Sequence record: PP359570
From: Escherichia phage ALITA
DNA: 64,000 nucleotides
Strand: one strand, 5' to 3'
In this document: one piece after another, positions 14,033 through 36,971 of the stretch
How the letters are laid out: each line of letters opens with the position of its first letter
How positions within the stretch are numbered: position 1 is the stretch's first letter
Position numbers and translations under genes: made by a program
The notes under the pieces: model-generated
What the model saw: only the letters and a program-made list of their open reading frames with translations
What the model was told of the DNA's origin: nothing
Database searches by the model: none

Positions 14033-14720
14033 TTAGTCGTTCCTCCGCTTGCTTAAAAATATTTACATCGGCTTCACAGCCTAAGTATTCTCTACCTGTT
14101 AAAAGTGCCGCAACTTGTGTTGTTGCACTTCCAGAGAAGAAGTCTAAGACTACATCTCCTTCGTTGGTGTGTATATTAATAAGGTCACAAAACAAAGTCA
14201 AGTGTTTTTGTGTTGGATGAAAACGATCTGCTCCTTGATAGATAGGATACTCAAACACACCCTTATGGTAGGAAGCATTGAAGGTTGGCTTCGAACCTTT
14301 AACACAAACAATAGCCATCTCTTTAGCGTTACTAAGGTAGTTAACACCACTGTTGATGGGTACAGGGTTTGTTTTAATCCATTCGATAGTACGGAACATA
14401 CGAAAACCAAGCGGTTCAAGGATTTCACGTAGCTCCTGGATCTTCCAGATATCATACCAAACTATGCAAGTACCACCTTTTCTAAGCACCCTGTAGGCTT
14501 CTTTGAATACTTCTTTAAAGTAAGGAATATCTACAACATCCCAATCACCGAAGTTGTAAGATACACGGAATCTATCCGTATCTTTTCCAGTCGGCTCTCC
14601 AGATTGAAAATTTGTGTCACGAGAAATAGCATATGGTGGGTCAGTAAGAATCAAATCTACACTATTGCTTTCGAGGGTTTGCAGGTAGTTTAATGCGGTG
14701 TTGTTTACAAATTCGCTCAT
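13989..14720 (-). CDS. DNA methyltransferase, beta-class amino-MTase (N6-adenine or N4-cytosine)
   Basis: 243 aa; DPPY catalytic motif near N-terminus and SAM-binding FFSGSATT near C-terminus (beta-class order); strong SD AAGGAGAT. Confidence 0.85.
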   Translation of the reverse strand: MSEFVNNTALNYLQTLESNSVDLILTDPPYAISRDTNFQSGEPTGKDTDRFRVSYNFGDWDVVDIPYFKEVFKEAYRVLRKGGTCIVWYDIWKIQELREILEPLGFRMFRTIEWIKTNPVPINSGVNYLSNAKEMAIVCVKGSKPTFNASYHKGVFEYPIYQGADRFHPTQKHLTLFCDLINIHTNEGDVVLDFFSGSATTQVAALLTGREYLGCEADVNIFKQAEERLNEYTEQQNHPESTD

Positions 14721-14780: not shown

Positions 14781-15728
14781 TTAGAAACAGTGCAGGAAGT
14801 TTCGACCATACTGCAAACCAATAGGAGCAAATGGGATATCATCATCGAAATCTTGAACAACAGGTTCTGGTTCTTTCGGTGCTGGCTCTTTCTTCTCTAC
14901 TTTTTTAGTTTCTTTCTTAACTTCTTGTACCGGGGTAGACATTCCACGGATAGCAGCAGCTACTTTATCAGACAAAGCAAGAACTTCACGAGCAGCTTCA
15001 ATAATCTCTTCTGCCGTTACAGTTTTACCTGTATGATCACGACAAGCGTTAAGAATTGCGTGTCCAACTGAAGCACCAAGATCATAGTCAGTTACATCAA
15101 CGCCACGATCTTTAGCAATTTCTGCTTTCAGAGTAACAGTTGCAGATTGTACCACACCAGCCAAGTCGAAAGCATCACCTTTCACACCAGCACGTAGAAG
15201 CTCCAGAGCGCCGTTTACAGCGTGTCCTGTTTCAATCCCTACGGTATCACGTTTTTTGTAGTTAGGCTTGCTACCTTCGTTATTAGATGGCTTATTTCCA
15301 CCTTTTGAAGAAGATTGTGCTTGCTGAACACCTTCTGTTGAAAGAATAGTGATTTTACCTTTAGAGGAATTGTAGTATGTTTTGCCATTCCATTCAGAAG
15401 GTTTAACATCCATAGTTAGTTCTACACCTTTTTCGATAGTAACCCACTTATCACCATCTTTAACTTGCAGGTTTTCATGTTCTGGGTGCAGTTTAACTTC
15501 ACCTAGGCTAACCCAAACACCTTTATCATCAGCACCAGCACCTTTCTCTTTAATAAGCAGGGATGCTTTGTGAGTTGATTCAATTTTCTTATCTGGCTGA
15601 CCTGCAACCTTAATATAAGAAACTTTCATTTCATCAAACTTATCTAGTTTGACATATTCAACGATACCTTCAGCCCAGAATGCTTCTTTTTTAGTACGAC
15701 GGTCGATTTCAGAATTAATTACTGGCAT
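14781..15728 (-). CDS. Single-stranded DNA-binding protein-like
   Basis: 315 aa; acidic DFDDDIPF motif (as at bacterial SSB C-terminal tip) 15 residues from the end; G/S/N-rich linker; position beside replisome genes. Confidence 0.55.
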   Translation of the reverse strand: MPVINSEIDRRTKKEAFWAEGIVEYVKLDKFDEMKVSYIKVAGQPDKKIESTHKASLLIKEKGAGADDKGVWVSLGEVKLHPEHENLQVKDGDKWVTIEKGVELTMDVKPSEWNGKTYYNSSKGKITILSTEGVQQAQSSSKGGNKPSNNEGSKPNYKKRDTVGIETGHAVNGALELLRAGVKGDAFDLAGVVQSATVTLKAEIAKDRGVDVTDYDLGASVGHAILNACRDHTGKTVTAEEIIEAAREVLALSDKVAAAIRGMSTPVQEVKKETKKVEKKEPAPKEPEPVVQDFDDDIPFAPIGLQYGRNFLHCF

Positions 15729-16186: not shown

Positions 16187-16780
16187 TTAAATTTTAAATT
16201 CTTCACTGTTAAATGAATCCAGTGTACGTACTTCTGGTTCTTTGGGAATGAAAACATCTTTTACAAAGCGGAACATAGGGAAACGTTCTGCCATTTTACG
16301 GACGTGTGCTTCTTTACCTGTGTATCGGTGATTAATAGTACAAATATTAGTTTTCAGTGCAAATTCAAAATCTGGATGATATACATAATTTTGACCGTCC
16401 CAGTAACACAGGCAAATAGCTACATCAAAGTTCCATACGATTTCACTGCGTACACCTTCTTCCATGATCATAAAGTTAAACTTAAGATCTTTATAGTATG
16501 CTTCAAATACCCATTTCAAATGTGGTAGTTCGGCATAAGTGTGTTCTGTTTGCTTAGTAAGTTGTTTAACATTACGTGCACCAACACCCAACATCAAAAA
16601 TTTCTCTACTAATACGAGTGTATTGTGGTTAGGCATACGCAAGTAAATGTCAATATCTTGCGCAGGTTTCTCTAATCGCCAGTCACGTACAGCGCCGCCA
16701 GCTACAATTGCAAACGGATCTACCAGTTGGCACATACGTAATACTTCTAAAGCTCGTACTTTTTGATCTTCAATATTCAT
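16187..16780 (-). CDS. Nucleotidyltransferase (pol-beta-like head domain; CCA-adding/poly(A)-polymerase family-like)
   Basis: 197 aa; motif FAIVAGGAVRDWRLEKPAQDIDIY resembling GGAVRD...DxD of tRNA nucleotidyltransferases. Confidence 0.55.
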   Translation of the reverse strand: MNIEDQKVRALEVLRMCQLVDPFAIVAGGAVRDWRLEKPAQDIDIYLRMPNHNTLVLVEKFLMLGVGARNVKQLTKQTEHTYAELPHLKWVFEAYYKDLKFNFMIMEEGVRSEIVWNFDVAICLCYWDGQNYVYHPDFEFALKTNICTINHRYTGKEAHVRKMAERFPMFRFVKDVFIPKEPEVRTLDSFNSEEFKI

Positions 16781-16815
16781 ATTTTCTCCTATCTCTTATG
16801 GTCTTTGCGTTATTC

Positions 16816-16833
16816 TAGATGTTCAAACATCTA
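16816..16833. promoter_or_regulatory. Perfect 8-bp-arm palindrome (candidate operator) upstream of nucleotidyltransferase gene
   Basis: TAGATGTT-CA-AACATCTA. Confidence 0.3.
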
Positions 16834-16919
16834 ATTATGAAATAGTTTAAAAGTGCGGAACAACCTTGGCAATCACAGATTGTTCCACATAAAAACTCCT
16901 TATAAAACAATATGTTAGA

Positions 16920-19499
16920 CTAATGACAAGACGCCCATGAGTTACCAACATCGTAACCAGCAGTGAGAGGTACATTAAGATTGTAATACTCACCAGCTTT
17001 ATTAACAGCGATAGATGCTAATTCTCCAGCACGACTGTAGGCTGTAAACCAACCACCTTTCGGAGATTCATGTACGTTAGCCCAAATCTTGCCAGTACGT
17101 TTCTCTTCCTCTTCTTTCCAGGCATTAACCTTATCCAAACATTCTTTATCAATTTTCTTTTGTTCTTCTGGATCATCAACTTGAGTCCAACCTAAAGATT
17201 CTTTAGAGAACCATTTAAAATGCACCAGATCACGAGTTACTTCAAGCTGTGCTTCATCGTGATATGCAATCATTTGTTGAACGAATGACTTATTTTTCCA
17301 GTCATCAACAAAAAAGTCAACAGCTAATCCTTCTTCTTCGATAAGATCGTCGTAGATAACCATTGCTCTTTTTGCACAAATAACACCACCACTCTGGAAC
17401 AGAGAGTTAAGTATTGCGTGTGCAGATCGTGTAGGTACTTTCCTACCATCAATACCAAGAATGTATTTCTTACCTGTTTTAACCCAAAAATCATGCAGAC
17501 GTTCTTTAAGAAGCGCAAGAGGTTTTGCAGCTTCCCAGAAAGCATCGTATACAAGCTGTCCTGTATACATATCACTACCTATAGTTTTTGCTACTTTTGC
17601 AGCTTGAGCACCATAAGTAATACCATACTTAACAGATTTAGCAGGGCTTCGTTCAAACTTACGACCAATAGTGTCAGAAATACGTCGAGCCATCATTGTA
17701 TGAACATCATTAGGTTTTTCCAATAATAGAGCATTACAATATTCGTGTGGTTCCTGCTCGTACCGCCAACAGTAGTGTGATTCTATTTTTGCCTCAAGAG
17801 AATCAAAGTCATAACCAATTTGGAAGTATTTTGGAACTTCTACACCAAATAAGTTACGCATTTCATATCCGTACAGAGATGTTACACGTGGGATATTTGC
17901 TACTAACCTATGTTTCATACGAGACGTAGCTGCATCACACGTTGCAGCAGGAGTTGGTATACGACCATCAGCCCTTACTGCTGCCAGATAACCTTTATCG
18001 TAATCCTCTTCATCTTCTTCCCAATCAGCACCACCCCCTAGAATAGAGTTCCTACGGTGTTTATACGTAAGATACTGCACAATCTGCGTAGCATAAGGAA
18101 ACTTTTCACCTAGTGCTTCCAAGTTAGGACAAATATCTTTCTCTTGCCCTTTTGTAAAGGAAGGGTTAGTAAGCACTTTAACACCACGACCTTTAGCTTT
18201 AGCAATACGATCTCTTAGTTTCCATTCCAAAGTTTCTGGTGTGCACTCCAGATGATCACATCTGTCCTGGCAGAAGTTAGATGCTAACGTTTGATCAACA
18301 TAGTCACGAATAGCTTTCTCCATCTGTGCTTCATCTTTCTTAATCTTAGTGCCAGATTTAAGAGTGATATCTTTATCTTTATATTCAGATGGACTCCAAC
18401 CTAAACCAACTAACCAATTTTTAATATGTGTAGTGTCGTCTAAAGTAGCAGGTACTGTAGGATCACAAATAGGTTCTTCTGCTGGAATAGGCAGTTTAAA
18501 CTCTTTACCTAATGCAAATAACCACCAACCATCTTCTTTTTGTACAAGTTCACCAGAATGTTTCTCTGCAAACTTTATCATGTTACTTGAAGGTTCACCA
18601 TTCTTTTTAAACTGTAGTTTAGGTGGAATGAATGATTTCAAATAACCTTTAGTAGCAGGTTTAGGAGGTAGCACAGGTTCTGCCTCTAAACGACATGCTT
18701 CCATTCGAGCATCCAGATCACGAATATTATCTTCTGCTTGCTTCATATTGAAAGCAAAGCCACGGTGCTCTTGACGTGTAATAATATCAGCTACACGTTG
18801 TTCTAAGTTAAATGGTTCAGACCACTTATTATAATCACCCCACTCTTCCATCAAATAACGGAACACTGCGGTGTTAGCTTTGTTATCGTAAATACAGTAA
18901 TACAGCATATCTGCTGCAAATGTTTTAAATCTTTCAGTTTCAGGGATGTTTTTTCTAAAATCAATTTTAACATCCCCTCCAGCTTTCTTAGATAACTCTG
19001 CCAGACTATGACCACCGAAGCGATCAGGGTTTAGTGTCTTACTTAAGATCATAGTATCACAAATTTCAATGTTACTATTACCCCAAGTATTGTACTTAAT
19101 ACTGTAGTTGAGTTTAAAAAATAATTTAATTGCCAGTAAGTCAAAGTTAATGATGTTATGTCCAACTACTTTGGTAATTTTATAGTTTGAATTACCTTTA
19201 AATTTACCTGTTCCATTTACAAAATCAGGAAAATCTTTAAGAGGGAAATGGGTATATTCTAAATGCTCATATTCCTCCAGTCGGTATTCATACTTTCCGT
19301 CAGTCTCAATATACGGACGACCATCGAAAAGATATTTATCACCATCATGGAAAGCAATAATCTCTCCAGTATCATGACTTTCGCACACAATACAGTGCAT
19401 TGCAAAACTATCTTTTAAACGATATGGACTTGCCAAGTAATCTACACTTTCGTCATTAAGCAAGTTGTTACTTTCAATGTCGAAAGTAAAAGCTCCCAT
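16920..19499 (-). CDS. DNA polymerase, family A (T7 gp5-like)
   Basis: 859 aa; motif A GYDFDSLEAKI, motif B RSPAKSVKYGITYG, motif C YHDEAQ; C-terminus ...NSWASCH like T7 ...NWAICH; SD AAGGAGG. Confidence 0.95.
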   Translation of the reverse strand: MGAFTFDIESNNLLNDESVDYLASPYRLKDSFAMHCIVCESHDTGEIIAFHDGDKYLFDGRPYIETDGKYEYRLEEYEHLEYTHFPLKDFPDFVNGTGKFKGNSNYKITKVVGHNIINFDLLAIKLFFKLNYSIKYNTWGNSNIEICDTMILSKTLNPDRFGGHSLAELSKKAGGDVKIDFRKNIPETERFKTFAADMLYYCIYDNKANTAVFRYLMEEWGDYNKWSEPFNLEQRVADIITRQEHRGFAFNMKQAEDNIRDLDARMEACRLEAEPVLPPKPATKGYLKSFIPPKLQFKKNGEPSSNMIKFAEKHSGELVQKEDGWWLFALGKEFKLPIPAEEPICDPTVPATLDDTTHIKNWLVGLGWSPSEYKDKDITLKSGTKIKKDEAQMEKAIRDYVDQTLASNFCQDRCDHLECTPETLEWKLRDRIAKAKGRGVKVLTNPSFTKGQEKDICPNLEALGEKFPYATQIVQYLTYKHRRNSILGGGADWEEDEEDYDKGYLAAVRADGRIPTPAATCDAATSRMKHRLVANIPRVTSLYGYEMRNLFGVEVPKYFQIGYDFDSLEAKIESHYCWRYEQEPHEYCNALLLEKPNDVHTMMARRISDTIGRKFERSPAKSVKYGITYGAQAAKVAKTIGSDMYTGQLVYDAFWEAAKPLALLKERLHDFWVKTGKKYILGIDGRKVPTRSAHAILNSLFQSGGVICAKRAMVIYDDLIEEEGLAVDFFVDDWKNKSFVQQMIAYHDEAQLEVTRDLVHFKWFSKESLGWTQVDDPEEQKKIDKECLDKVNAWKEEEEKRTGKIWANVHESPKGGWFTAYSRAGELASIAVNKAGEYYNLNVPLTAGYDVGNSWASCH

Positions 19500-19995: not shown

Positions 19996-21768
19996 TTAAT
20001 AAGAACCAGCAGAAATATTTTCTGGGTTACTTGTGTATTGATCGTAATCGTGAAGTGTAGCTGTTTTAATCTCATAGAAGAAACTACCTGCTGCACCAGT
20101 CTCTGAGAACTCACGGTTCTTTAGAATGTAGCAATATGTGCGGTTACGTTCCATAGGATCTTCAGCTTGTTTATCACGCTCCAGCGCAATTGTGATACCA
20201 GCACCTTTAGCAAGGAAGCTACTACCCATTGCATCATCTTCTACAATATGTTCATTACTATTGTTAGAAGACTTTTTAACGTGTGAAATTACAACAATGG
20301 TTATTGCATACTCTTTCATAATGCGTTTCAGCCACGTCGCAAGTTCCTCTTGTTGTGACACGTCCATACCAGAAAGCAAATCAGAATAAGGGTCGATAAC
20401 AAGAATGGTTACTCCGAAATAAATAATCATTTCCAGAACCTTCTCTTTAATCACATCTACGTTAGCTCCACGATCATCACAAACATAGAAACGTGGTGTT
20501 CCATCTTCTCGTTCGTAAAAATCACGAATCTTTTCTTCATTATCTTTTAAAATCTTTTCCTTCTCTTCTTTCGTTTTACGGTGAAGAGGGATATGCAAGA
20601 ATGAAGACAGTAAGTTACGAGAATACTTCTTATACGTTGCCTCCAAAGATAAAATACCAAGAGTATGTTCTGGGTGTGCAAGAATAATGTGTTTCGTAAT
20701 CTCGTTAACCAACAGTGTCTTACCGATACTTGTTTTTGCAAGTATAACAGTAATTTCTTCTTCTACCAAGCCTCCACCTAACATATTCGAAGCAACACGC
20801 ATGAATGGAGGAAGGGTGATCATTTTAGCTTCCAGGCATTCCAAGGCTGCTTCATATAGTACGTTAGAAGCGTAAACACCAGCAGGTGTGTACAGTTTAG
20901 CTTTGAAAAAGCGATCAATAAAATGATCAATTTTTCCTTCTACTAGTGCCTGGTTAGGATCTTTAACATCCGTTAGTTCCATCACGTAAACTTTATTACG
21001 TGGTAAGATTTTAACACATTTCTCAACTGCTGCACGTCCAGCTTCATCATTATCCATACATAGAACAATCTTTTTAAATTGATCTAAGAATTTATAACGA
21101 TGTTGAAGCTGCTTATGCAGAGATGTTTCGCCACAAGTACCAGATACTACAGCAGGAACAGGATATTTACCACCCTTGTTATAATCTTTTAGCATCTGTG
21201 TTGCAGCCAGCATATCGTGTTCACCACCAACGATTAGAATAGTACCGCTGTGGTTACGATATTTAAACTCCCCAAAAAGATCACAATCCTTTCCTGTTTC
21301 ACCGATAGGATGTGAGAAATCTTTTGGATCGATACGTTGTTTATACCCAGCAATATTGTAATCTTTAGTTGTAGGGTATAGTGTTGAAATTACTTCGCCA
21401 GTAGCTTCATCGTACATATAACGTACACCGAAAGGCTTAGAGATATCTTCACGAATACCGCGATAACCTTTTGGATTAGTTCCAGTGCTGGCTTTTAGTT
21501 TATCATGTACTTCTGGATTAAACTCACTACCCAAGATATCCTCCTCTTCAATTTCTTCGCCGTGTGCATTTAACCATTTTTGATCAGGGATAGTAAAGCC
21601 ACAAGAAAAACAATGTGCGCCTCGATGGTCTTCATCGGCATCTAAGCCATATACCATCAAATTGTTTTGTGATCGATCACGCCCTCCTTTCATACAACGA
21701 GGACACCCAGTATGTCCTTCTTGACTTAGATCAATGTTATACCCATATTTATTTACAACATAAGACAC
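19996..21768 (-). CDS. Primase-helicase (T7 gp4-like)
   Basis: 590 aa; N-terminal zinc ribbon CPRC...CFSCGF, then DnaB-like helicase with Walker A LAKTSIGKT. Confidence 0.9.
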   Translation of the reverse strand: MSYVVNKYGYNIDLSQEGHTGCPRCMKGGRDRSQNNLMVYGLDADEDHRGAHCFSCGFTIPDQKWLNAHGEEIEEEDILGSEFNPEVHDKLKASTGTNPKGYRGIREDISKPFGVRYMYDEATGEVISTLYPTTKDYNIAGYKQRIDPKDFSHPIGETGKDCDLFGEFKYRNHSGTILIVGGEHDMLAATQMLKDYNKGGKYPVPAVVSGTCGETSLHKQLQHRYKFLDQFKKIVLCMDNDEAGRAAVEKCVKILPRNKVYVMELTDVKDPNQALVEGKIDHFIDRFFKAKLYTPAGVYASNVLYEAALECLEAKMITLPPFMRVASNMLGGGLVEEEITVILAKTSIGKTLLVNEITKHIILAHPEHTLGILSLEATYKKYSRNLLSSFLHIPLHRKTKEEKEKILKDNEEKIRDFYEREDGTPRFYVCDDRGANVDVIKEKVLEMIIYFGVTILVIDPYSDLLSGMDVSQQEELATWLKRIMKEYAITIVVISHVKKSSNNSNEHIVEDDAMGSSFLAKGAGITIALERDKQAEDPMERNRTYCYILKNREFSETGAAGSFFYEIKTATLHDYDQYTSNPENISAGSY

Positions 21769-21780: not shown

Positions 21781-22050
21781 CTAAAATGATTCGTTTGTCT
21801 CCATAATATATTGCATTTCCAAATCTTCCATATGTTTCTTAAATTGGTAAACAATTTCCGATGGGGAAATATCTATATCAAAAAGTTCTTTTGTACCAGA
21901 ATAAAACCTAATACCATCAACAATAAGACCACCATAATAATCCCAATCACTTTCTCGTGAGAAAGGGTTAGGTTCTTCATAATAGTAATCTACTTCAACA
22001 ATAATAGGTTCTTTATTATCTTGTTTATACTCAAAATCAAAAGTGTGCAT
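21781..22050 (-). CDS. Hypothetical protein
   Basis: 89 aa, SD GAGGA. Confidence 0.45.
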   Translation of the reverse strand: MHTFDFEYKQDNKEPIIVEVDYYYEEPNPFSRESDWDYYGGLIVDGIRFYSGTKELFDIDISPSEIVYQFKKHMEDLEMQYIMETNESF

Positions 22051-22985
22051 TATAAATCCTCGATAAGCAGTCTGCGGGTTTCATTTAAATTGTAGTTATC
22101 TCTTACATACTTAGCAAGAGCCAATCCTTTCTCAATACAAACATCAGGGGATTCGATTAAGTATTCTACAATATCTTTCCACTCTTTAACTGAATCAGCA
22201 AAGAAGATTAGATCTTTAAATTCTTCAGTATAATAGTTCTCTCGTGGCGAACAAACGAGTGGCAAACCTTTAGCACCAGCTTCAAGAATTTTTAAATTAC
22301 TTTTGGCATTATTAAAATGATTATTTACTAATGGAGCTATGGAGATTTGATGACCATCGTATGCTTCCATATAACACTCATAAGGACGAATACCTTCATA
22401 AACACAATCTGGTTGAATATTTTCTTTAATTTGCAACCATTGAGCACTACTTAACTCTTCGTGATCTCTACGAAATCCACATAAAGTTAAATCTTTACCA
22501 AAATCAGGAAGAATTGCTAAATCATGTTTATGTGTTTCACTTCCCGCCCAAACCAGTGGACTTTTAGAATAACGATCTTTAGTAAGAACAAACTGTCCTT
22601 CATCAAAAGGTAGTCCGTTAGGCACAATATGTACATTATCATTGTATTGGCTTAATTCAACCTTTAATGCCGGAGTTGTTGTAGTTACAAGATCACTTCT
22701 TTCAAGGAACCATTTTAGGTCATCTCGGATTTGATTTTCAAATAATCCTTCAAGCATATGCCCTTCAGGAATAATTAAAGAATCATCCAGATCCATTACC
22801 AATTTAAACCCAAGTTGTTTAAGAGCCAGGAAACCTGGCTTTCCACGTGTTGGTACTCCATTGAACACAAAAATATTATGCTTAGGATTAATTGTCAGTT
22901 TGCGTTTATATGGCAAAATGATTCTATGAAAATCACATACACTATACTTTTCATTTCCGCGTGTGTCAAGAATAATATTAGGCAT
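22050..22985 (-). CDS. Glycosyltransferase (GT-B fold, group-1-like)
   Basis: 311 aa; C-terminal motif ISIAPLVNNHFNNAKSNLKILEAGAKGLPLVCSP; paralog of next gene. Confidence 0.65.
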   Translation of the reverse strand: MPNIILDTRGNEKYSVCDFHRIILPYKRKLTINPKHNIFVFNGVPTRGKPGFLALKQLGFKLVMDLDDSLIIPEGHMLEGLFENQIRDDLKWFLERSDLVTTTTPALKVELSQYNDNVHIVPNGLPFDEGQFVLTKDRYSKSPLVWAGSETHKHDLAILPDFGKDLTLCGFRRDHEELSSAQWLQIKENIQPDCVYEGIRPYECYMEAYDGHQISIAPLVNNHFNNAKSNLKILEAGAKGLPLVCSPRENYYTEEFKDLIFFADSVKEWKDIVEYLIESPDVCIEKGLALAKYVRDNYNLNETRRLLIEDL

Positions 22986-22996
22986 ATATCTCCTTG

Positions 22997-23971
22997 TTAA
23001 AGACTTTCAATAACTTGACGACGCAGTTCATTGGCATCTGCAAGATTATAATTAAGACGAACGTGTTCTGCAAGCATCATACCACGATCTTCTGTGTATC
23101 TAGGGTTCCTCATTAGCTTGACAACTTCATAATGCCAAGATGCTTTAGAGTCTGCATAGATAACAGCCTTTGCATCTACCGGATTGAAGTACGGCAGCAC
23201 AGGAGAACAGATAATAGGAAGACCCTTTGCACCTGCTTCCAAAATCTTCAAATTGCTTTTACAGTTGTTGAAGTCATTATCTACCAGGGGAGCAATTGCA
23301 ATACTGTGACCGTCATACACAGACATATACTCACCTAAATTTTTAATAGCTGGTTTATACTGTGCATTTGGAATCTTACGTTTTATTTTAACCCACTCCG
23401 CAGTAGTTAGATACTGACTATTATTTCCAACAGGTGCAGAAGGATACACTTCATACCCTGCAATTGTCAATAGTGTATCATCAAATGTATTAGCTACAAG
23501 AGATAAATCAGGTTCGTGGCTTGCTCCTCCAGCCCAGATAATAGGCGTGTCAGAATTACGGTCTTTTGTCAAAGTAAATTGACCTTCGTCGTAAGGTAGT
23601 GCGTTTCTAATAACGACAACATTACGATTTAAATGACGAATTTTGTAAGCTAGGTATTCTGTTGTTACAGTAACAACATCTGCTAACTTGACCATCTCTA
23701 CAATAGTCTTTGAGTGATTAGTAAATACGCCAGCCATATAATGTTCAGGATTAAGTGAATAAAAATCATCTAAATCAACAATAATCTTAACACCTTGTGC
23801 CTTCAGGCGTTTAACCTCGTCTGCTCCACGAGAATACACTCTATTAAAAACTAAAACGTCTTTCTTAGGTTTAAACGTATTTCCAGCAAATGGCATTACA
23901 ATACGATGGTAATCACAACCACTGCCTAACTTATTATCACACTTAAGTACAGGAGTATTAGGATTTACCAT
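22997..23971 (-). CDS. Glycosyltransferase (GT-B fold), paralog
   Basis: Start set at ATG with SD AGGAGG (MVNPNTPVL...); motif IAIAPLVDNDFNNCKSNLKILEAGAKGLPIICSP. Confidence 0.65.
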   Translation of the reverse strand: MVNPNTPVLKCDNKLGSGCDYHRIVMPFAGNTFKPKKDVLVFNRVYSRGADEVKRLKAQGVKIIVDLDDFYSLNPEHYMAGVFTNHSKTIVEMVKLADVVTVTTEYLAYKIRHLNRNVVVIRNALPYDEGQFTLTKDRNSDTPIIWAGGASHEPDLSLVANTFDDTLLTIAGYEVYPSAPVGNNSQYLTTAEWVKIKRKIPNAQYKPAIKNLGEYMSVYDGHSIAIAPLVDNDFNNCKSNLKILEAGAKGLPIICSPVLPYFNPVDAKAVIYADSKASWHYEVVKLMRNPRYTEDRGMMLAEHVRLNYNLADANELRRQVIESL

Positions 23972-24644
23972 ATTTTTGAGCCTCCTCATAAGAGATAAAA
24001 GTTTTACCATTGCGAAGATCCTCCAGTGATTGTTTATATTGTTCCCAGTTTACACCAATCCCCTGTTCTTTCTCTTCTTTTGACAGATTCGCAAAAGGTA
24101 AAGGATTATCTCCAAATACATCATCAGGATGGATAAACGCCATAATTCGAATAGGACATGGCACGCCTTGAATACCTCGGTTCAAACCTGCCAGTGGAAC
24201 GCGATGAATCCACTCTGCATCTTCATATCCATAACCGTGGGTGTATGAGCGGAAATAGCCAGCTTTCTCAATAACTGCACGGGAATACATACCAAACTGG
24301 CACATACCTAGTTCCCAAATAACCACTTCCCCTTCAATACCTTTTACTTTATCTTTAAAGTATTCAGGCATACCAAAGAAATCCCAACCATTTTCCTTCG
24401 CCTGTTTTACAAAATATGTTTCCCAACCTTGAACAACAGGATAGCAATCATCATCAAAAATAAACCAGTAATCATACCCTTCATCATAAAACTTTTTCAT
24501 CAGTTCATTACGAGCATATGCAACACCTTTTCGTTCCCGATCATACTGTACAACAAAAGTAGCATTAGGATCAGTCACAAGATAATCTTTAAGAGGACGC
24601 TTACCTACAGTAATAACACCAACACCAATTTTTGTATTTTCCAA
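23958..24644 (-). CDS. Glycosyltransferase (GT-A fold, DxD)
   Basis: 228 aa; YWFIFDDDCYP DxD-type motif. Confidence 0.6.
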   Translation of the reverse strand: MENTKIGVGVITVGKRPLKDYLVTDPNATFVVQYDRERKGVAYARNELMKKFYDEGYDYWFIFDDDCYPVVQGWETYFVKQAKENGWDFFGMPEYFKDKVKGIEGEVVIWELGMCQFGMYSRAVIEKAGYFRSYTHGYGYEDAEWIHRVPLAGLNRGIQGVPCPIRIMAFIHPDDVFGDNPLPFANLSKEEKEQGIGVNWEQYKQSLEDLRNGKTFISYEEAQKYGKS

Positions 24645-24653
24645 AATAACTCC

Positions 24654-25217
24654 TTAAATAATTTTATTCATGTCTTGACAATGTAAAAGGTGTGAAATAG
24701 CTTTTCTAGGATCATCATTACCTAAACGGTATGTGTGAAATAAATATAACCCACGTAGTAAACCTAGCCTTTTATTGTTAGCGTGCAATGCTTTAGAGAA
24801 AATTATATCAAACTGTATTGATCTTTCCTCAAAAGGGATTTCATTCCACAGACTCTTACGAAAGAGAAGAAAGAATCCTGCTAAGATAGCATCTGTAGGT
24901 ACTTCCTCTATTGAGTTTCCCCATTCTAGATGTGCTCTTTTTGCAATCTCAATGTGGTGTAATATATTCGGATCTTCACTTCTTTCATTATTAAATAATT
25001 GATATGTTGATCCCAATCTATTACAAGATGCACCAAGAACATCAAAATCAGGATTTGAACGGACTATTGATTCCAGCCAAGCAGGTTGTTCTGGAAGAAG
25101 AAACATTGTATCAATGTCTCTTAGGCAAATCCAACTATCTTCTGGTAAGACACTTATTGTGTCATTGATACCTTTTCCAATATCTCCAGAAAGATAGGGA
25201 GTTATGTGAAATATCAT
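24654..25217 (-). CDS. Putative glycosyltransferase-like protein
   Basis: 187 aa; CLRDIDTMF acidic motif; adjacent to three GT genes. Confidence 0.4.
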   Translation of the reverse strand: MIFHITPYLSGDIGKGINDTISVLPEDSWICLRDIDTMFLLPEQPAWLESIVRSNPDFDVLGASCNRLGSTYQLFNNERSEDPNILHHIEIAKRAHLEWGNSIEEVPTDAILAGFFLLFRKSLWNEIPFEERSIQFDIIFSKALHANNKRLGLLRGLYLFHTYRLGNDDPRKAISHLLHCQDMNKII

Positions 25218-25965: not shown

Positions 25966-26475
25966 TTAGCGATAAAATTGATGTTCTTTGTAGCGGTACA
26001 CTAGAACCATATCTTTTTCCCAGTGTGCTCTTATTGTAGATTTTTTAAAGTATAATGCTCCTTTTGTAATATCTAATGCAATTCGTAATTCTGGAAAATG
26101 CGTATCGAGATAAAGTAGACGTTCTGCTATAGCCTTAGCTTCCTTCCACTTATCACGTTCCATAACGTTGAATGTCTTTGTGTAAGAGAATTGTCCTTTT
26201 TGAAACAAAACTTCTTTTATAGTATCAGGGAAATATGAATCTCTAGCCCTATTCAATACTACATTACCAACAGCAGACATACCGCGCTTTCCTTGATTAC
26301 GACTTTCTGCATAGATTGCACAAGCTAATAGATTTTCTTTACTATCACGCTTTGTACACTTGTGAACTACTTTAGCAGTTTTTACGTTTGCAGCTTCGGC
26401 TTGCGCCACAACAGGTGTAAATGTAAAAGCAGTTAAGGATAGTAACGCAATTGCGACAAAGGTTTTTATTGACAA
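25966..26475 (-). CDS. Cell wall hydrolase (SleB/Hydrolase_2 family) with N-terminal signal peptide; putative secreted endolysin
   Basis: 169 aa; signal peptide MSIKTFVAIALLSLTAFTFTPVVAQA; motif AIYAESRNQGKRGMSAVGNVVLNRAR. Confidence 0.75.
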   Translation of the reverse strand: MSIKTFVAIALLSLTAFTFTPVVAQAEAANVKTAKVVHKCTKRDSKENLLACAIYAESRNQGKRGMSAVGNVVLNRARDSYFPDTIKEVLFQKGQFSYTKTFNVMERDKWKEAKAIAERLLYLDTHFPELRIALDITKGALYFKKSTIRAHWEKDMVLVYRYKEHQFYR

Positions 26476-27222: not shown

Positions 27223-27819
27223 TTACTCGAACCAATCGTCGCCAGCGCCAAACGCTTTAACTACATCATAAATGTCAAGTCCAGCTTTACCTACACCATA
27301 TGCTTTCAGTTTCCATTCGCTATCTTCCCGCACCAGGGAGGCAACGTGGCAAATGGTATTACCTGCAAGTTCTGGAGCCAAGAAGTCAAAATCCAGCAGT
27401 TCAACGTTACGTTCATCATCGAAGATTTTAAGGAAACCTTCGGTAGCGTGACCAAGGCGTTTCTTACCCGTTTCGTCATCAATAGTGATTACGAATGCAA
27501 TTTCCTGTGCTTCAGCAGAGATATTATCCAGTGTAACATCAATCTGCTCCATTTGTCCTACACCGTCACGAACATCTTCACCTGCAAAAGTAGAACGTTC
27601 AGGATCAAATTTCTGTGCGTAGCATACCAGGTGGCGAGGAGACAACAGTTCCGGCAGACCAGATGCATTGTGTCGGCAAATCAGAGCACTAACATCCAGA
27701 TCCAGTTTTTCGTTAGATTTCCAAGAGAATTCCAGACGAATGCGTTTCAGTGCTGGTGCAATCTTTTTCAGAGAAACTTTTTCGCTAGAACCTTTTTTCA
27801 GGGAAATTTTCTGAGTCAT
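27223..27819 (-). CDS. TerD-family protein (tellurium-resistance/stress-response TerD domain)
   Basis: 198 aa; alignable by eye over full length to E. coli TerD (MTQKISLKKG..VSLKK, LDLDVSAL, IAFVITIDD, EWKLKAYGVGKAGLD). Confidence 0.85.
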   Translation of the reverse strand: MTQKISLKKGSSEKVSLKKIAPALKRIRLEFSWKSNEKLDLDVSALICRHNASGLPELLSPRHLVCYAQKFDPERSTFAGEDVRDGVGQMEQIDVTLDNISAEAQEIAFVITIDDETGKKRLGHATEGFLKIFDDERNVELLDFDFLAPELAGNTICHVASLVREDSEWKLKAYGVGKAGLDIYDVVKAFGAGDDWFE

Positions 27820-27891
27820 AATTTATTATCTCCTTTGTTGTTAATTTACGTTGTCTATTTTACTAATCTTTTCTACAAAGTCAAGCGTTTT

Positions 27892-28686
27892 TTACGCTTT
27901 TGCTCCAAATTTTTTAACCCACTCGCCAAACTCTTCGGATAGCAGTTTATCGTAAAGTTCTTCGTCAGACAAGGACAAATCTGCAATACCGATAAAATCA
28001 ACGTTATCGTATTCTTTTGCCAAGTCTTTCAGGAATTTAAAGTTTGCATTACCTACACCAACCATAAACCAGTAAACAGGAGTGTTGCGGTGTTTGTTCA
28101 GCAAACTACGTACTGCTGAAGTATCCATGTTCTCCCCGTCAGTTTGGAAGAAAATCATTGCAGGAGTACGATCAACTTGTGCATCAGTATCTACAACCTG
28201 TTCTACAACAGTACGTGTAACTTCTACACGTTCTTTTTTACCAGTTAGTTTAGCAAGGAAACCCTTAGCCGGAACTTCTTCATACTCAACGACTTCGCGT
28301 GTAATATTTTTCATAGGTACACTACCGAAGTATGTATCATAGATCTCTTGCATTACTGGAGCATAAGCTGTACCACCATTGATGCAAACATTAGACATAC
28401 AAGAGCCGACATAATCATCATATACATCAGCCGTTGCAGGAGGCAGTTCAAAAGAAGAACTATTGAAAGCCCACATGTCAATCTGTGCATTATCATCAAA
28501 CTTCATACCAAACGGCAGCAGCTTACCTACAAAATCACTAACAGTGCCATCACGATACAGCTCACACATACTACCCGAAATATCTAAGGCGCTACCGACA
28601 CGAAGAACAACATCGTTAATCTTTTTCTTACGCAGAGATACGGTAAGAGTTTCTTGACGTTTTTTAAGACTGATTTTATTGGACAT
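27892..28686 (-). CDS. von Willebrand factor A (vWA) domain protein, TerY-like
   Basis: 264 aa; MIDAS motif DISGSM; adjacent to TerD. Confidence 0.7.
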   Translation of the reverse strand: MSNKISLKKRQETLTVSLRKKKINDVVLRVGSALDISGSMCELYRDGTVSDFVGKLLPFGMKFDDNAQIDMWAFNSSSFELPPATADVYDDYVGSCMSNVCINGGTAYAPVMQEIYDTYFGSVPMKNITREVVEYEEVPAKGFLAKLTGKKERVEVTRTVVEQVVDTDAQVDRTPAMIFFQTDGENMDTSAVRSLLNKHRNTPVYWFMVGVGNANFKFLKDLAKEYDNVDFIGIADLSLSDEELYDKLLSEEFGEWVKKFGAKA

Positions 28687-28687
28687 A

Positions 28688-28957
28688 TTATTTCTCCTTT
28701 CTGAGTGTAATGTTAGTAACTTCTAAATCCACTTCTACCACTTCTGTATCATATAAAATACAGTTAAGTTGACCTCTTTGTGAACCGTTCAGACACATTG
28801 CTTGGTTTGTATTAACCTTAATAAACACTAAGTTTCTGAACGTATCTAAACCAGCATCTTGATAGGCAACATAATATACGAATGTATCACCTGTGTCAAG
28901 TTCTCCAAAACATTTAGGTTCATCTGATTTGTCGTCTTTGATATTAAATTTAAGCAC
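28688..28957 (-). CDS. Hypothetical protein
   Basis: 89-aa ORF. Confidence 0.45.
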   Translation of the reverse strand: MLKFNIKDDKSDEPKCFGELDTGDTFVYYVAYQDAGLDTFRNLVFIKVNTNQAMCLNGSQRGQLNCILYDTEVVEVDLEVTNITLRKEK

Positions 28958-29513
28958 TGTCTTCTCCTTTACCTGCTCTCAAGCCTAAATAGAAAGCCTC
29001 TCTGGTGATCTTTTGCAACTCGTTTAAAGAGATAGTTACAACTAAATCATCTTCAATTTCTAGCTTTGAGTCTTCTTCTGTCTCAATGCAAGTATTATGC
29101 ACTTTGTGGTAAGGATTGTCAACACGTTTAAATTTATTATTTTCAGTGCTGAAGAAGCAATCTGGATCTTCTTCCCCATCACCCCAACCCTGGTTAGGAT
29201 CTTCTTCAGATCTTTCTGTTGGGATCTCGCCTGTAAAGTGCTCTTCTAATACCAGAGCAATCCCATCTCCAAGATCGGAAGAGAACATCAAATTACAAAC
29301 TTCTTCCCAAGGCATAGACCACTTAAATCTTTTACGATTGCCATGTTTATCTTCTTCGTTAGAGAAAACACTACCATAGCTATCATAATTCCCATACATC
29401 TCTTCGACAACCTTACCACCTTTCAAAAGAAATAGGTAGCAAGGAGAGCCATCGAAAGAGGTAGAAAGAGCAGCATTACCAGACTCTTTGCACAAGAAAC
29501 TAAAACACCCCAT
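28950..29513 (-). CDS. Hypothetical acidic protein
   Basis: 187-aa ORF. Confidence 0.5.
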   Translation of the reverse strand: MGCFSFLCKESGNAALSTSFDGSPCYLFLLKGGKVVEEMYGNYDSYGSVFSNEEDKHGNRKRFKWSMPWEEVCNLMFSSDLGDGIALVLEEHFTGEIPTERSEEDPNQGWGDGEEDPDCFFSTENNKFKRVDNPYHKVHNTCIETEEDSKLEIEDDLVVTISLNELQKITREAFYLGLRAGKGEDSA

Positions 29514-29713
29514 TATACACCAGCCTTAAGATCAATTAAAGCCAAAGTTGTTTCAGAGTGTGTTTGCTCGTCTACAGGTGCAGTCATATGATAATACAAA
29601 AAATCTTCGGCATCATACCAATCTGATTCTTGACCTTGTTTCCAACCATCAATGAAAGCATCTTCCATAATGGTTTGCAATTCTTCACGAGTTAAGTGAA
29701 TATCTTTACTCAT
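29513..29713 (-). CDS. Hypothetical small protein
   Basis: 66-aa ORF. Confidence 0.4.
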   Translation of the reverse strand: MSKDIHLTREELQTIMEDAFIDGWKQGQESDWYDAEDFLYYHMTAPVDEQTHSETTLALIDLKAGV

Positions 29714-29919
29714 TACACATTCTCCTCTTTTACCAATTCCATTGTTGAATTGTCAAAACCATCTTTAGAAGAATAGGTATAGACAGCACGTAGTTCTCGC
29801 AGGACAGTGAATACATTAGGATCATCTAACCAAGCATCCTGGAGGAGAACATAACGATCTTCATTGTCATACTGGACAGCAATCATAGAGCCAGACAGTT
29901 TGTAAATTTTAATATTCAT
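29713..29919 (-). CDS. Hypothetical small protein
   Basis: Start at internal ATG with SD AAGGAG (MNIKIYK...). Confidence 0.4.
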   Translation of the reverse strand: MNIKIYKLSGSMIAVQYDNEDRYVLLQDAWLDDPNVFTVLRELRAVYTYSSKDGFDNSTMELVKEENV

Positions 29920-29932
29920 AATATATTTCTCC

Positions 29933-31036
29933 TTAAAGTAGACCACGTTTAACAGTTTGAATCATACCATCTTCAAGAGATTGCACTTCTTGAATGTAAT
30001 CAATACGAGCAGCACGGGCTTCAGTGTTGATTCGGTTAGTTTCTTCCAACATTTTAACTAAGTTTTCTTGATCACGACGCAATGTTTCAATATCCAATAC
30101 TTGACGATTAGCAAGTTGTGTAGCTTCAATCTGGTTTTGTGCAGCCAGATCACTACCCATTGCAATAGCAGCATTAAATTCATTCAGTACGTTGTTCTGT
30201 GTATCGGCTGCTTTCTTCTGGCGCAGACTTTCAATATACATAGAAAAGTTTGCAGAGTAAGCAGGAATAACATTGTTCACAATATTACGGGCTGATCGCA
30301 TCAAACTTGCAGATACTTTCTGCATACTTTGTACACGTGGCCCCATCTGAACGCACAGTAAGCGTAAGGCTTTCAGGTCTGCAATACGAATTTCAAGCAG
30401 ATCCATAGTGTCACGAGTACGTTGACGCTCTTCTACTTCATTTTCAGGTAGTGTATTAAGGCGAACTTCTTCTTTTTCATAAGTAGCTGTTAGAAGCTCT
30501 ATATCCCTGTTTAAGCTAAGAGCATATTTTGCAATAGCCTCCTCTAAACGTTGCAGATATCGTAAAGAATCTTCTTCTTTTTTCAAGTCTGTTTGGAGTG
30601 TCTTTACCAAACCCTCAATACGATTATTGATGGTGTCAAATTCTCCAAACAAATCTTCTTTCATACCTAATACTTTCTTAACTAACTTACCTAAACCTTT
30701 AGATTGTTTAATAGAATTAGGATCAAGTTGCTTTGCTTGCTTAATAAGTGCAGTTAAACGTTCACTCATTTCATCTCCCTGAGATGAACGCTGGTGTTTA
30801 AGCACTTCAGCATTAAGGTTACGAAGAGTAAGTCCTGCATCAGCACCAACTTGTTCAATCTCTTCACGAGACATTGGAGGCAGCATTTGTACAGGTCGTG
30901 CAACAGCAGGGGCATATACAGGACTTGCATCCATAGCACTTGGAGCAAACAAAGACTTACTTTTTTCTGTTGTTGCCGTGAATACACTCATTTCAGACGG
31001 TTTGCTTTTTACGGCACTGATAAAAGGACTGGACAT
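29933..31036 (-). CDS. TelA-like (toxic anion resistance family) coiled-coil protein
   Basis: 367 aa, extended alpha-helical/coiled-coil architecture and length typical of TelA/KlaB; context with TerD/TerC. Confidence 0.55.
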   Translation of the reverse strand: MSSPFISAVKSKPSEMSVFTATTEKSKSLFAPSAMDASPVYAPAVARPVQMLPPMSREEIEQVGADAGLTLRNLNAEVLKHQRSSQGDEMSERLTALIKQAKQLDPNSIKQSKGLGKLVKKVLGMKEDLFGEFDTINNRIEGLVKTLQTDLKKEEDSLRYLQRLEEAIAKYALSLNRDIELLTATYEKEEVRLNTLPENEVEERQRTRDTMDLLEIRIADLKALRLLCVQMGPRVQSMQKVSASLMRSARNIVNNVIPAYSANFSMYIESLRQKKAADTQNNVLNEFNAAIAMGSDLAAQNQIEATQLANRQVLDIETLRRDQENLVKMLEETNRINTEARAARIDYIQEVQSLEDGMIQTVKRGLL

Positions 31037-31104
31037 TCAATTTCCTCCATATTCTTTAGTAGATGGTGATACCTCTGTACCACCATCATAACACAAATTA
31101 AGTA

Positions 31105-31956
31105 TTAAACAAACATATCTAAATAATTTGTAGTAATAAATGCTCCATCTGCTTCCAGATTAACATAACCAGTAGCATTAGTGGTTAAGAAATCCAGATC
31201 GAAGGACTCTTTAACACCCCGTACCTCAACACGAGAGATATCGAATACAGGTAGTGTAACAGCCTCTTCGTGCAATACCGTACCTTTGTAGGTTGCCTTA
31301 ATGATAAACTTGATATTACCCGTTCCAGCATCATACAAAACACTTTCAAACCCTTTGAGAGTATATTTATCACCAGAAGTGAAGTGCAAAGTTGCTTTGT
31401 TTACAGTACGTTTTTTACGAGGAGTTCCTTTCACACGTTTATGATCACTACGTTTTTTGTATTTAGGAATGAATACAAACGATACACTCTCAAGAAAGGT
31501 ATCAACATCAAGGATTTTAATATCCTCTGTTGCAGCAAATTTTGAAGTCGTTGCATCAAAATGCTTTTCCCTGCGATCATACATAAAGATATCAAACCGA
31601 TCTTCTAAATCAAACAAATTATGTATTTTAATTTCAGAATGCTTGCGCATTGCAGCAACCTTGAACTCTTCAAAACGTGGGTGTTCTACAAGTTCTTCAA
31701 GTTTTACACCAAAGACAGTATATTGCTTCGAAGTCTTTTCTGGTGTTGGCATTACAGAAGCATAATCACCGATTGCGCTCTTAAAGCAAAATTGTTCTTG
31801 ACCTGTATTTTTACCAACGAATTTACAGTATTCGTCATTGTGCATACTTTCCTTAGTAGTACCAACAAACTCAAAACCATCTTTATTCTTCTCAAGGATT
31901 TCTTGATTAAAGATCCAACCTTCCAGGCGATATACTTTACCAACTTCTAGTTTCAT
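31105..31956 (-). CDS. Hypothetical protein
   Basis: 283-aa ORF. Confidence 0.5.
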   Translation of the reverse strand: MKLEVGKVYRLEGWIFNQEILEKNKDGFEFVGTTKESMHNDEYCKFVGKNTGQEQFCFKSAIGDYASVMPTPEKTSKQYTVFGVKLEELVEHPRFEEFKVAAMRKHSEIKIHNLFDLEDRFDIFMYDRREKHFDATTSKFAATEDIKILDVDTFLESVSFVFIPKYKKRSDHKRVKGTPRKKRTVNKATLHFTSGDKYTLKGFESVLYDAGTGNIKFIIKATYKGTVLHEEAVTLPVFDISRVEVRGVKESFDLDFLTTNATGYVNLEADGAFITTNYLDMFV

Positions 31957-31991
31957 CTGTTTCTCCTTCTTATTTAATCTGTATTAAATTA

Positions 31992-32582
31992 TTAACGACG
32001 ACGTGAGCTACTAAAACTACGTTTCGACGAAGAATAACTTTTCGAAGACTTACTATAAGAGCTAATAGGGCTTGAGTAAGACTTACGAGCAGAGTAATCA
32101 CTATTCACTTTTGTTGTTGACGGGCGTGAATACGTTTGTACACTTTGCTGCTTAATTGTGTTTTGTTTAGTGGTTGTATATTTATTTCCTTGTTTATCAT
32201 AAAAACTATGCTTTTGTGTTGTATATGCTTTACTGTTAGTTGTAGGAGCAGCGTTGTTATTAATAATTGTTGTACTGCTACCACCATCTCTATAACCGCC
32301 ACCGCCACTATTACCACTCAACATATGACCAAGAAGCATACCTGTAGCAAACTCACCTACACCAGAAGAACCACTGCCGCCTCCTTGCACAACAACTGTT
32401 GAAGGTTGTGCAGGTGCTGCTTGAACAACTTGAGGTGCAGGTTGATTTACATATTGTTCATCTACCATCTGATTTGGTGTTTGTTGGTAACGTTGATTTT
32501 GTACATTTTCAGAATCATCACAACCTACCAGCAATGCACTACCTAATACAACTGCAACAATAAAAGATTTAATGTTTTTCAT
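31992..32582 (-). CDS. Lipoprotein with glycine-zipper segment and S/Y/K-rich low-complexity tail
   Basis: Signal peptide plus lipobox LLVGC; GGGSGSSGVGEFATGMLLGHML glycine zipper; start set at MKNIKS. Confidence 0.55.
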   Translation of the reverse strand: MKNIKSFIVAVVLGSALLVGCDDSENVQNQRYQQTPNQMVDEQYVNQPAPQVVQAAPAQPSTVVVQGGGSGSSGVGEFATGMLLGHMLSGNSGGGGYRDGGSSTTIINNNAAPTTNSKAYTTQKHSFYDKQGNKYTTTKQNTIKQQSVQTYSRPSTTKVNSDYSARKSYSSPISSYSKSSKSYSSSKRSFSSSRRR

Positions 32583-32775
32583 TTGTAACCCTCTCATTTA
32601 AAGTCTCAACACAATTTTTAAAATCCCTAGAGAAACAATACATCTGTTCTCCGTTCCTGTTGATAGTAATTGTATGGTTATCAATATATGTTGTCAAGAT
32701 AAAAATCAAACAAAACAACCCTAGAGCAAAACAAATATTTTCAAACAGAATCCAAAGAACACGTAAAACCACCAT
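32569..32775 (-). CDS. Small membrane protein
   Basis: 68 aa, one hydrophobic helix. Confidence 0.4.
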   Translation of the reverse strand: MVVLRVLWILFENICFALGLFCLIFILTTYIDNHTITINRNGEQMYCFSRDFKNCVETLNERVTNEKH

Positions 32776-32790
32776 CAGATCACCTCAACA

Positions 32791-32808
32791 AAGCCCCCGA
32801 AGGGGCTT
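32791..32808 (-). promoter_or_regulatory. Intra-operon hairpin (partial terminator) after TerC gene
   Basis: AAGCCCC-CGAA-GGGGCTT. Confidence 0.4.
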
Positions 32809-32814
32809 AATGAA

Positions 32815-33792: not shown

Positions 33793-33810
33793 TCTTTTCT
33801 CCTCTTTAAT

Positions 33811-33829
33811 GCGGAGGACAATCCTCCGC
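33811..33829 (-). promoter_or_regulatory. Hairpin upstream of TerC gene
   Basis: GCGGAGGA-CAAT-CCTCCGC. Confidence 0.35.
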
Positions 33830-33869
33830 TCTATGTCTTATACTATAAACTGTTTTTAAAGAAAGTCAA

Positions 33870-34118: not shown

Positions 34119-34132
34119 ATAAAAATCCTCTC

Positions 34133-34339: not shown

Positions 34340-34348
34340 ACTTTCTCC

Positions 34349-36564: not shown

Positions 36565-36566
36565 TT

Positions 36567-36722: not shown

Positions 36723-36733
36723 TTTCTTCCCCT

Positions 36734-36925: not shown

Positions 36926-36944
36926 AATACCCTCCATATAAATA

Positions 36945-36966: not shown

Positions 36967-36971
36967 ATCAC

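Follow-up and report, generated by a model that had tools for sequence, protein, structure and literature searches.

Chlorovirus PBCV-1 and mimivirus encode a pathway for a rhamnose nucleotide together with several soluble glycosyltransferases (GTs), and they glycosylate structural proteins in the cytoplasm. For phages, the one proven case of virion glycosylation reportedly is that of the mycobacteriophages (Che8 with gp108-110, Corndog, and Myrna), described by Freeman and colleagues in 2023. According to two later papers, phage-encoded GTs of mycobacteriophages attach O-glycans to the C-termini of the capsid and tail-tube proteins (Freeman 2023, as given in PMC12363180 and PMC11256854). Here, we analyzed a block of four GT genes (positions 22050-25217, minus strand) of Escherichia phage ALITA (sequence record PP359570); the stretch of 64,000 nt that was available is denoted the window. 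Our preferred, though tentative, reading of the genomic data is that the soluble enzymes encoded by this block act in the cytoplasm and, with no lipid carrier involved, build a glycan containing rhamnose on proteins, most likely those of the virion.

The window is assigned to a phi92-like myovirus (Justusliebigvirus, Stephanstirmvirinae). In comparison with deposited genomes, a 4.3-kb stretch at the GT block is 98-99% identical to 55 phages of the phi92 group, and the closest matches are the Escherichia phages inny, alia, and outra (99.1% identity each). The coordinates of alia (NC_052655) correspond nearly one-to-one to those of the window, and alia served as the reference genome for genes beyond the window. 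The same four genes are gp044-047 in alia, with the RefSeq product name "glycosyltransferase", and gp163-166 in phi92, whereas in the BASEL collection two are labeled "putative disaccharide synthases" and two "putative glycosyltransferases". The cluster has been linked to the dTDP-rhamnose (dTDP, deoxythymidine diphosphate) pathway of these phages (Olsen 2020, PMC7552041; Maffei 2021, PMC8594841), and no functional study of phi92 gp163-166 was found in literature searches. Because the genes, their annotation as GTs, and the possible link to dTDP-rhamnose are all public, the cluster as such was already known. Added here are the case against DNA glycosylation, a fold assignment for the fourth enzyme, and the recognition of a mobile module of three GT genes in contexts that are suggestive of virion glycosylation.

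Two GT-B and two GT-A enzymes from one compact block

The block is filled by four co-oriented open reading frames (ORFs), which we denote GT-B1 (22050-22985, 311 amino acids [aa], GT-B fold), GT-B2 (22997-24010, an ORF of 337 aa, GT-B fold), GT-A (23958-24644, 228 aa, GT-A fold of the DxD type), and GT4 (24654-25217, 187 aa, minimal GT-A fold with a DxD motif), all on the minus strand. GT-B2 more likely starts at M14 (position 23971, yielding 324 aa) because the N-termini of its homologues and the RefSeq annotation of alia begin there. GT-A has a TTG start codon behind an AAGGAG ribosome-binding site, and its N-terminus agrees with those of its homologues; GT-B1 is likewise preceded by AAGGAG. 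Two gaps of 11 nt and 9 nt and one overlap of 14-53 nt (GT-B2/GT-A) separate or join the genes, in line with the initial annotation, which had described four tightly packed, co-oriented GT genes. No terminator-like hairpin was found inside the block. The number of promoter-like sites, 37 versus an expectation of 28 ± 5, is not clearly above chance, so that it is solely the gene spacing and the absence of terminators that point to an operon.

The four proteins differ strongly in how they respond to profile searches. All four have very strong matches to PHROG families (E-values of about 1e-80 to 1e-149), which bears out their assignment as GTs, whereas the Pfam matches are weak and pass the gathering score only for GT-B1; GT-A has a sub-threshold match to TAGT, and GT4 has none. 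The NCBIfam search of the four proteins returned nothing, and PDB chains yielded nothing meaningful, neither with the four protein sequences nor with the profiles of GT-A and GT4. No transmembrane segment was predicted in any of the proteins, the highest 19-residue Kyte-Doolittle mean being ≤1.21. Given the folds, the catalytic motifs, and the lack of a membrane span, the block specifies two GT-B and two GT-A enzymes, all of which are probably soluble.

GT-B1 and GT-B2 are indeed paralogues with a common motif, as annotated initially: they are 41% identical (E-value 1e-79) and share NxKSNLKILEAGAKGLPxxCSP. GT-B1 matches PF13524 (Glyco_trans_1_2) with 27.0 bits at a cut-off of 25 bits, GT-B2 with merely 14-18 bits, and many homologues have precomputed PF13524 matches; both proteins belong to phrog_7162 (E-values of 1e-141 and 7e-149, respectively). 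Three motifs, DYHR, DLDD, and KSNLKxLEAGAKG, are conserved in the GT-B family, and the last of these, which is invariant in 16 diverse members and includes an invariant Glu, may have a role in donor binding. Compared with alia, GT-B1 has an in-frame deletion of 3 aa (IDD) near the C-terminus. The identity of GT-B2 to its relatives is 67% for L012 (the loci of relatives are designated by L and a number), 46-48% for L009 and L039, 46% for the siphophage L037, and still 42-44% for chromosomal genes of Pseudomonas, Trinickia, and Burkholderia. Of the two paralogues, GT-B2 is the one that is conserved widely, and GT-B1 is a duplicate confined to the phi92/phAPEC8 lineage.

For GT-A, a DxD motif had been noted initially, and this is substantiated by the family alignment, in which the motifs FDDD and YG(Y/F)ED are invariant; FDDD (D64-D66) is invariant in 14 sequences and nearly so in 148. 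GT-A matches phrog_2456 (E-value 2e-79), and an AlphaFold model computed from an alignment of homologues has a GT-A fold (predicted local distance difference test [pLDDT] 88), with STIV A197, vaccinia H3, TarP, B4GALNT1, LH3, and B4GalT7 as Foldseek neighbors. Among the top 50 matches of a fold search in BFVD there were only GT2-like, GT25, and giant-virus GTs, and no T-even DNA glucosyltransferase. The GT-A family comprises 1573 cluster representatives at an E-value of 0.001 or better. When the window protein and its 147 top matches were scanned with Pfam, 66 of the 148 matched Glyco_transf_7C, 46 Glycos_transf_2, and 18, weakly, TAGT. These results place GT-A, by sequence, in a GT2/GT7C-like family of GT-A-fold enzymes. 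Distant homologues are found in about 350 mycobacteriophages, in clusters for which virion glycosylation was found.

The fourth gene had been called GT-like. It does encode a GT, and the assignment can be refined, since GT4 is confidently predicted to be a second minimal enzyme of the GT-A fold. Searches of Pfam, NCBIfam, and PDB sequences gave no match for GT4, whereas phrog_14179 was matched with an E-value of 5e-113. The AlphaFold model (pLDDT 90.7) has a GT-A fold, and its Foldseek neighbors are LARGE1, the TDP-rhamnose-using RmlT, LH3, COLGALT1, and TarP. The residues D34, D36, N66, R67, H88, E131, D137, H161, Y163, and R164 are invariant, which for the DxD pair D34/D36 is based on 24 sequences. 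The top Foldseek matches of both GT-A and GT4 are all GT-A enzymes with a probability of about 1.0 and query TM-scores (template modeling scores) of 0.44-0.52; as the latter are only about 0.45-0.5, the folds do not point to any particular donor or acceptor.

A module of three GT genes recurs in unrelated phages

The complete set of four is present in Justusliebigvirus and also, with identities of 66-77%, in Phapecoctavirus, while a few Klebsiella and Citrobacter relatives lack one or more of the genes. Beyond this lineage, GT-A, GT-B2, and GT4 constitute a three-gene module that is common to unrelated phages. All three are found together in L037, a siphophage-type contig of 30 kb with a content of guanine plus cytosine of 64.5%, a type that was seen on 16 contigs. 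Its gene order is large terminase, portal, protease, major capsid protein, and a 66-aa ORF, then the GT trio, and thereafter head-tail connector, head closure, tail completion, tail tube, and tape measure. The trio is contiguous with 4-nt overlaps, and the identities to the window proteins are 41% (GT-A), 46% (GT-B), and 41% (GT4). Two of the 22 proteins on L037, and only these two, end with PTT, namely the major capsid protein (...FAAPTT; 6770-8083) and the tail tube protein (...TGGPTT; 12049-12606), and this shared ending could be a C-terminal glycosylation tag.

Other relatives have a similar placement. In the siphophage L013, GT-A and GT-B are situated directly upstream of the genes for small terminase, large terminase, portal, and capsid. 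In the Pseudomonas prophages L018 and L019 (6639-9554), a Ser/Thr-rich Big_2 protein, GT-A, GT-B, and a metallopeptidase are encoded directly upstream of terminase and portal, and the Ig-like (Big_2) protein is a candidate acceptor. In L038, GT-B directly follows the terminase gene. In Cellulophaga phages, GT4 homologues are flanked by portal and capsid genes; if L010 is included, the neighbors are terminase or portal genes on one side and capsid genes on the other.

Several contexts also indicate the type of chemistry. The cassettes of L010 and L036 combine GT4 homologues with GT2, TOD1-like, and GT-D-like transferases, a polysaccharide deacetylase, Methyltransf_24, Glf, DegT, and a dehydratase, and in L014 and L015 relatives of GT-B are found beside DegT, radical-SAM (S-adenosylmethionine), epimerase, and acetyltransferase genes. 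Altogether, the cassettes of the relatives include DegT aminotransferase, epimerase/dehydratase, radical-SAM, acetyltransferase, O-methyltransferase, and Glf, a chemistry that is typical of glycoconjugates and not of DNA. On the chromosome of Burkholderia dolosa and on two Trinickia chromosomes (L020, L021, and L023; about 2600-8900), a GT-B homologue (42-44% identity to GT-B2) occupies the third position in what looks like an operon, after an inverse-autotransporter (intimin/invasin-type) adhesin and an unannotated, beta-rich protein of 555-571 aa. This arrangement may be an adhesin glycosylation operon, and the position of the GT-B homologue after an adhesin gene suggests a protein acceptor. 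Taken together, the contexts of the relatives point to glycoconjugate synthesis, and several of them are in or beside virion morphogenesis operons.

A putative rhamnose-containing glycan on virion proteins

A complete dTDP-rhamnose pathway has been described for phi92-like and phAPEC8-like phages (Olsen 2020, PMC7552041), and Pfam confirmed RmlB, RmlA, RmlC, and RmlD in alia at 113.5-116.8 kb, a region that is beyond the window. In addition, L009 and L039, two remoter relatives within this myovirus lineage, have a 4,6-dehydratase/epimerase gene within the GT cassette, between GT4 and GT-A. In view of both observations a 6-deoxyhexose is a reasonable donor, and one of the donors is probably dTDP-L-rhamnose from the phage RmlABCD pathway; the others would be uridine diphosphate (UDP) sugars of the host.

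In the proposed mechanism, the four soluble GTs would add a short glycan stepwise in the cytoplasm, directly onto a protein acceptor, and abundant virion proteins would be the likeliest acceptors. In favor of this mechanism, the enzymes have no predicted transmembrane segments, and no flippase, polymerase, or oligosaccharyltransferase is present in the annotation of the reference genome. The core of the system would be the GT4, GT-A, and GT-B2 module that moves between unrelated phages, and the duplicate GT-B1 would contribute one more transfer step or serve a second acceptor. A protein-bound, rhamnose-containing glycan may contribute to virion stability, to masking from antibodies or defense factors, or to adsorption. 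A more far-reaching version, which we consider doubtful, would be that the trio is an unrecognized mobile virion-glycosylation cassette of phi92/phAPEC8-like coliphages, siphophages, and Pseudomonas prophages, which decorates capsid or tail subunits with an O-glycan that contains rhamnose and uses a PTT-type tag in some lineages; this would be the first such cassette in phages of Gram-negative bacteria.

Several observations weigh against virion proteins as acceptors. The literature found does not report glycosylated phi92-like virions, and in this lineage the cluster is located with replication genes (primase/helicase, DNA polymerase) and not with structural genes. BLASTP revealed no homology of the four enzymes to Che8 gp108-110 (no match better than an E-value of 0.39). 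The capsid protein has no C-terminal extension compared with the GT-less rV5-like phages, the sheath protein of alia has a Ser-rich C-terminal tail that is missing from the GT-carrying phapecoctavirus ukendt, and no shared C-terminal tag was found in the phi92-like lineage; the PTT observation stems from a single contig. Furthermore, a position at a prophage edge or in front of the terminase genes also fits a moron-type modification of the host surface.

Alternative targets of the four enzymes

The initial annotation had considered DNA as well as a glycan of the virion or the host surface as the product of the cluster. The latter option fits the comparative contexts much better, while the evidence argues against bulk glycosylation of DNA, which is unlikely. 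What remains of the DNA option is the glycosylation of bases possibly at sparse or motif-specific sites, for example, at 5-methylcytosine formed by a phage C5-methyltransferase, and this we regard as very improbable. It is true that the GT cluster is located among replication genes, that the reference genome has a gene for a C5-cytosine methyltransferase, and that rhamnosylated hydroxymethyl bases have been speculated upon (Olsen 2020, PMC7552041). GT-A also weakly matches TAGT (TET-associated glycosyltransferase, PF20691) as well as the PHROG of the T-even beta-glucosyl-hydroxymethylcytosine alpha-glucosyltransferase (E-value 4e-5). However, the TAGT match, with 24.1 bits at a cut-off of 27.5 bits (E-value 3.9e-5) and confined to residues 16-79, is below the gathering score, the best TAGT E-value among the 148 proteins scanned is 1.6e-5, and the relatives mostly match Glyco_transf_7C or Glycos_transf_2; GT-A was therefore rejected as a TAGT enzyme. 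T-even-type DNA glucosyltransferases were present neither among the Pfam matches nor among the listed fold-search matches. The T4 enzymes AGT and BGT themselves are of the GT-B type and are unrelated to the four enzymes of the window.

Enzymes that could prepare a base for glycosylation were likewise not found among the proteins and annotations examined. To our knowledge, all characterized deoxynucleoside monophosphate (dNMP) hydroxymethylases belong to the ThyA fold. As noted initially, no dNMP hydroxymethylase is visible, neither in the window genes that were scanned nor in the annotation of the reference genome. The sole thymidylate-synthase-like gene of the reference is ThyX (PF02511), so that this "putative thymidylate synthase" was rejected as a ThyA-fold hydroxymethylase; in phmmer searches against PDB sequences the ThyX-type protein had no match at an E-value of 0.001 or better. 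No TET/JBP enzyme was found among the scanned proteins of the window and the reference, which did not include every hypothetical protein, or in three independent annotations. A DNA methyltransferase in the window had also been annotated correctly (13989-14720, PF01555, N6_N4_Mtase). In addition, the same GT module is present on the 30-kb contig of the siphophage L037, where the 19 kb examined contain no genes of nucleotide metabolism.

Plating data of close relatives point in the same direction. The GT cluster of phage Bas61 is 98.5% identical to that of the window, and phi92-like phages have been described as "exceptionally susceptible" to restriction-modification "despite a putative dTDP glycosylation machinery" (Maffei 2021, PMC8594841). 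According to the raw plating data, Bas60, Bas61, and Bas62 form zero plaques on strains with EcoRI, EcoRV, or EcoP1, and on EcoKI their efficiency of plating is 0.1-0.4 (PMC8594841). This restriction is the opposite of what T-even-type hypermodification predicts.

Two further targets, the host envelope and a small molecule or host protein, have to be weighed against the virion. The enzymes might modify cytoplasmic intermediates of the lipopolysaccharide (LPS) core, the enterobacterial common antigen (ECA), or the O-antigen, for example, by adding rhamnose, so that cells and debris would stop adsorbing this phage or its competitors. The top structural neighbors do include the wall-teichoic-acid GTs TarP and RmlT and GT25-type LPS enzymes, a resemblance to the LpxB-like "disaccharide synthase" was seen by the BASEL annotators, ECA and the LPS core are the receptors of phi92-like phages (PMC8594841), and some relatives are found at prophage edges, like morons of lysogenic conversion. 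We nevertheless consider remodeling of the envelope unlikely: membrane segments are lacking, neither GtrA/B/C-like proteins (the membrane-embedded flippase GtrA, GtrB, or GtrC) nor flippase or ligase partners are annotated in the genome, and the slow turnover of the surface would be of little gain to a virulent phage with a short cycle. Moreover, the module is part of the head operon in L037 and immediately precedes the terminase genes in L013, and these positions point to late, virion-linked expression. The other possibility is that a small molecule is glycosylated, such as the nucleoside-like metabolite that the neighboring Ter-associated PRTase/HAD/macro genes are predicted to make, or else that a host protein is modified in the course of takeover. 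For this, which we judge to be quite unlikely, speak the synteny of the GT block with a cluster of TerD, vWA-TerF, TelA, TerC, and PRTase_3 genes in the window, L012, and L039, and weak fold matches to the nucleoside glycosyltransferase AvpGT. Yet genes of one phage lineage can keep their order by inheritance although they are not functionally linked, and the siphophage and prophage loci carry the three-GT module without Ter genes in the sequenced flanks. In addition, three or four transferases together with a dedicated rhamnose pathway suggest an oligosaccharide and not a single tag.

Neighboring genes and database records

The block had been located initially between the primase-helicase gene and the lysis/Ter region, and the flanks correspond to this description, with the primase/helicase gene (19996-21768) on the one side and SleB-type hydrolase, TerD, vWA-TerF, and TelA on the other. 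Between the primase/helicase gene and the block, a conserved protein of 89 aa (21781-22050, minus strand; phrog_4240) is encoded, whose gene overlaps GT-B1 by 1 nt. The 89-aa protein is translationally coupled to GT-B1, while its membership in the module is uncertain. Its homologues come after a GT-B gene in L012 (49% identity) and L009, and it is not present in the siphophage versions, so it was rejected as a part of the module beyond its own lineage. The SleB-type hydrolase (25966-26475, minus strand; PF07486), situated between the Ter and GT blocks, has a hydrophobic N-terminus that resembles a signal sequence, and it has the same placement in the relatives L012 and L039.

This virulent phage also has a complete cluster of the Ter type, which extends from 27223 to 38132 on the minus strand. 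It contains TerD (27223-27819), a vWA-TerF-like gene (27892-28686), TelA (29933-31036), TerC (32815-33792), which is followed by a macrodomain gene, PRTase_3 (35058-35915), which is followed by an HAD gene, and an AAA ATPase (36972-38132), all of them on the minus strand. The cluster resembles the Ter-associated "nucleoside-like metabolite" systems that have reportedly been proposed from comparative genomics.

Directly downstream of the N6/N4 methyltransferase gene, an ORF of 315 aa (14781-15728, minus strand) has no Pfam match at an E-value of 0.01 or better. The HNH endonuclease gene that alia has in the interval between nucleotidyltransferase and DNA polymerase is missing from the window (about 16780-16920). 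Two RefSeq names of alia (NC_052655) look wrong. The "DNA methyltransferase" by the portal gene (1410-1889) matches an XkdF-type prohead protease (PF14550) and was accordingly rejected as a sugar methyltransferase, and the "putative thymidylate synthase" at 122340-123311 is of the ThyX type (PF02511). Copies of the GT genes are also present in records labeled as Campylobacter, Acinetobacter, or Pseudomonas phages (MG065645, MG065656, and others; OP562383; OR584014), with 72-99% protein identity to the versions of E. coli phi92- or phAPEC8-like phages, and these host labels are probably wrong or the result of contamination.

Comparison with known systems

As it stands, the main value of the analysis is the correction of a tempting misreading of an annotated cluster as a DNA glycosylation system. 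Phages of the phi92 and phAPEC8 types have very broad host ranges and are considered for therapy; if they do produce a rhamnose glycan, it could alter antibody recognition, stability, and host interactions, as in mycobacteriophages, and virion glycosylation would extend to phages of Gram-negative bacteria. If, alternatively, the target is the host envelope or a metabolite, such a role would be out of the ordinary for a virulent phage.

With the T-even/TAGT systems of DNA glucosylation, the locus has in common that the phage is virulent, that the GT genes lie among early or replication genes, and that GT-A has a weak, sub-threshold similarity. It differs from them in that no hydroxymethylase or TET enzyme was found and that type II and type III enzymes completely restrict the DNA of near-identical phages. 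The surface modifications by GtrABC and TarP likewise involve phage GT-A enzymes through which polymers of the host surface are altered, and TarP is a structural neighbor; those systems, however, belong to temperate phages and involve membrane-embedded components or wall teichoic acid, whereas the locus described here has neither the partners nor membrane segments.

The capsid and fiber glycosylation of giant viruses is similar in that GTs of giant viruses are among the structural neighbors. The hosts are eukaryotes, however, the donor is UDP-rhamnose and not dTDP-rhamnose, and the enzyme families are different, so that the analogy is functional only. The virion glycosylation of mycobacteriophages differs from the system proposed here by its host, which in our case is Gram-negative, and the phi92-like phages are virulent myoviruses that have the genes in the replication block and possess a dedicated dTDP-rhamnose pathway. 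The parallel between the two is one of function and not of descent. Both have phage-encoded cassettes of soluble GTs, GT-A is distantly related to proteins encoded in GT cassettes of the mycobacteriophage Clusters F and C (for example, Boomer gp102; 27% identity, E-value 7e-13), and the siphophage relative L037 combines a module next to the capsid gene with PTT at the ends of its capsid and tail-tube proteins.

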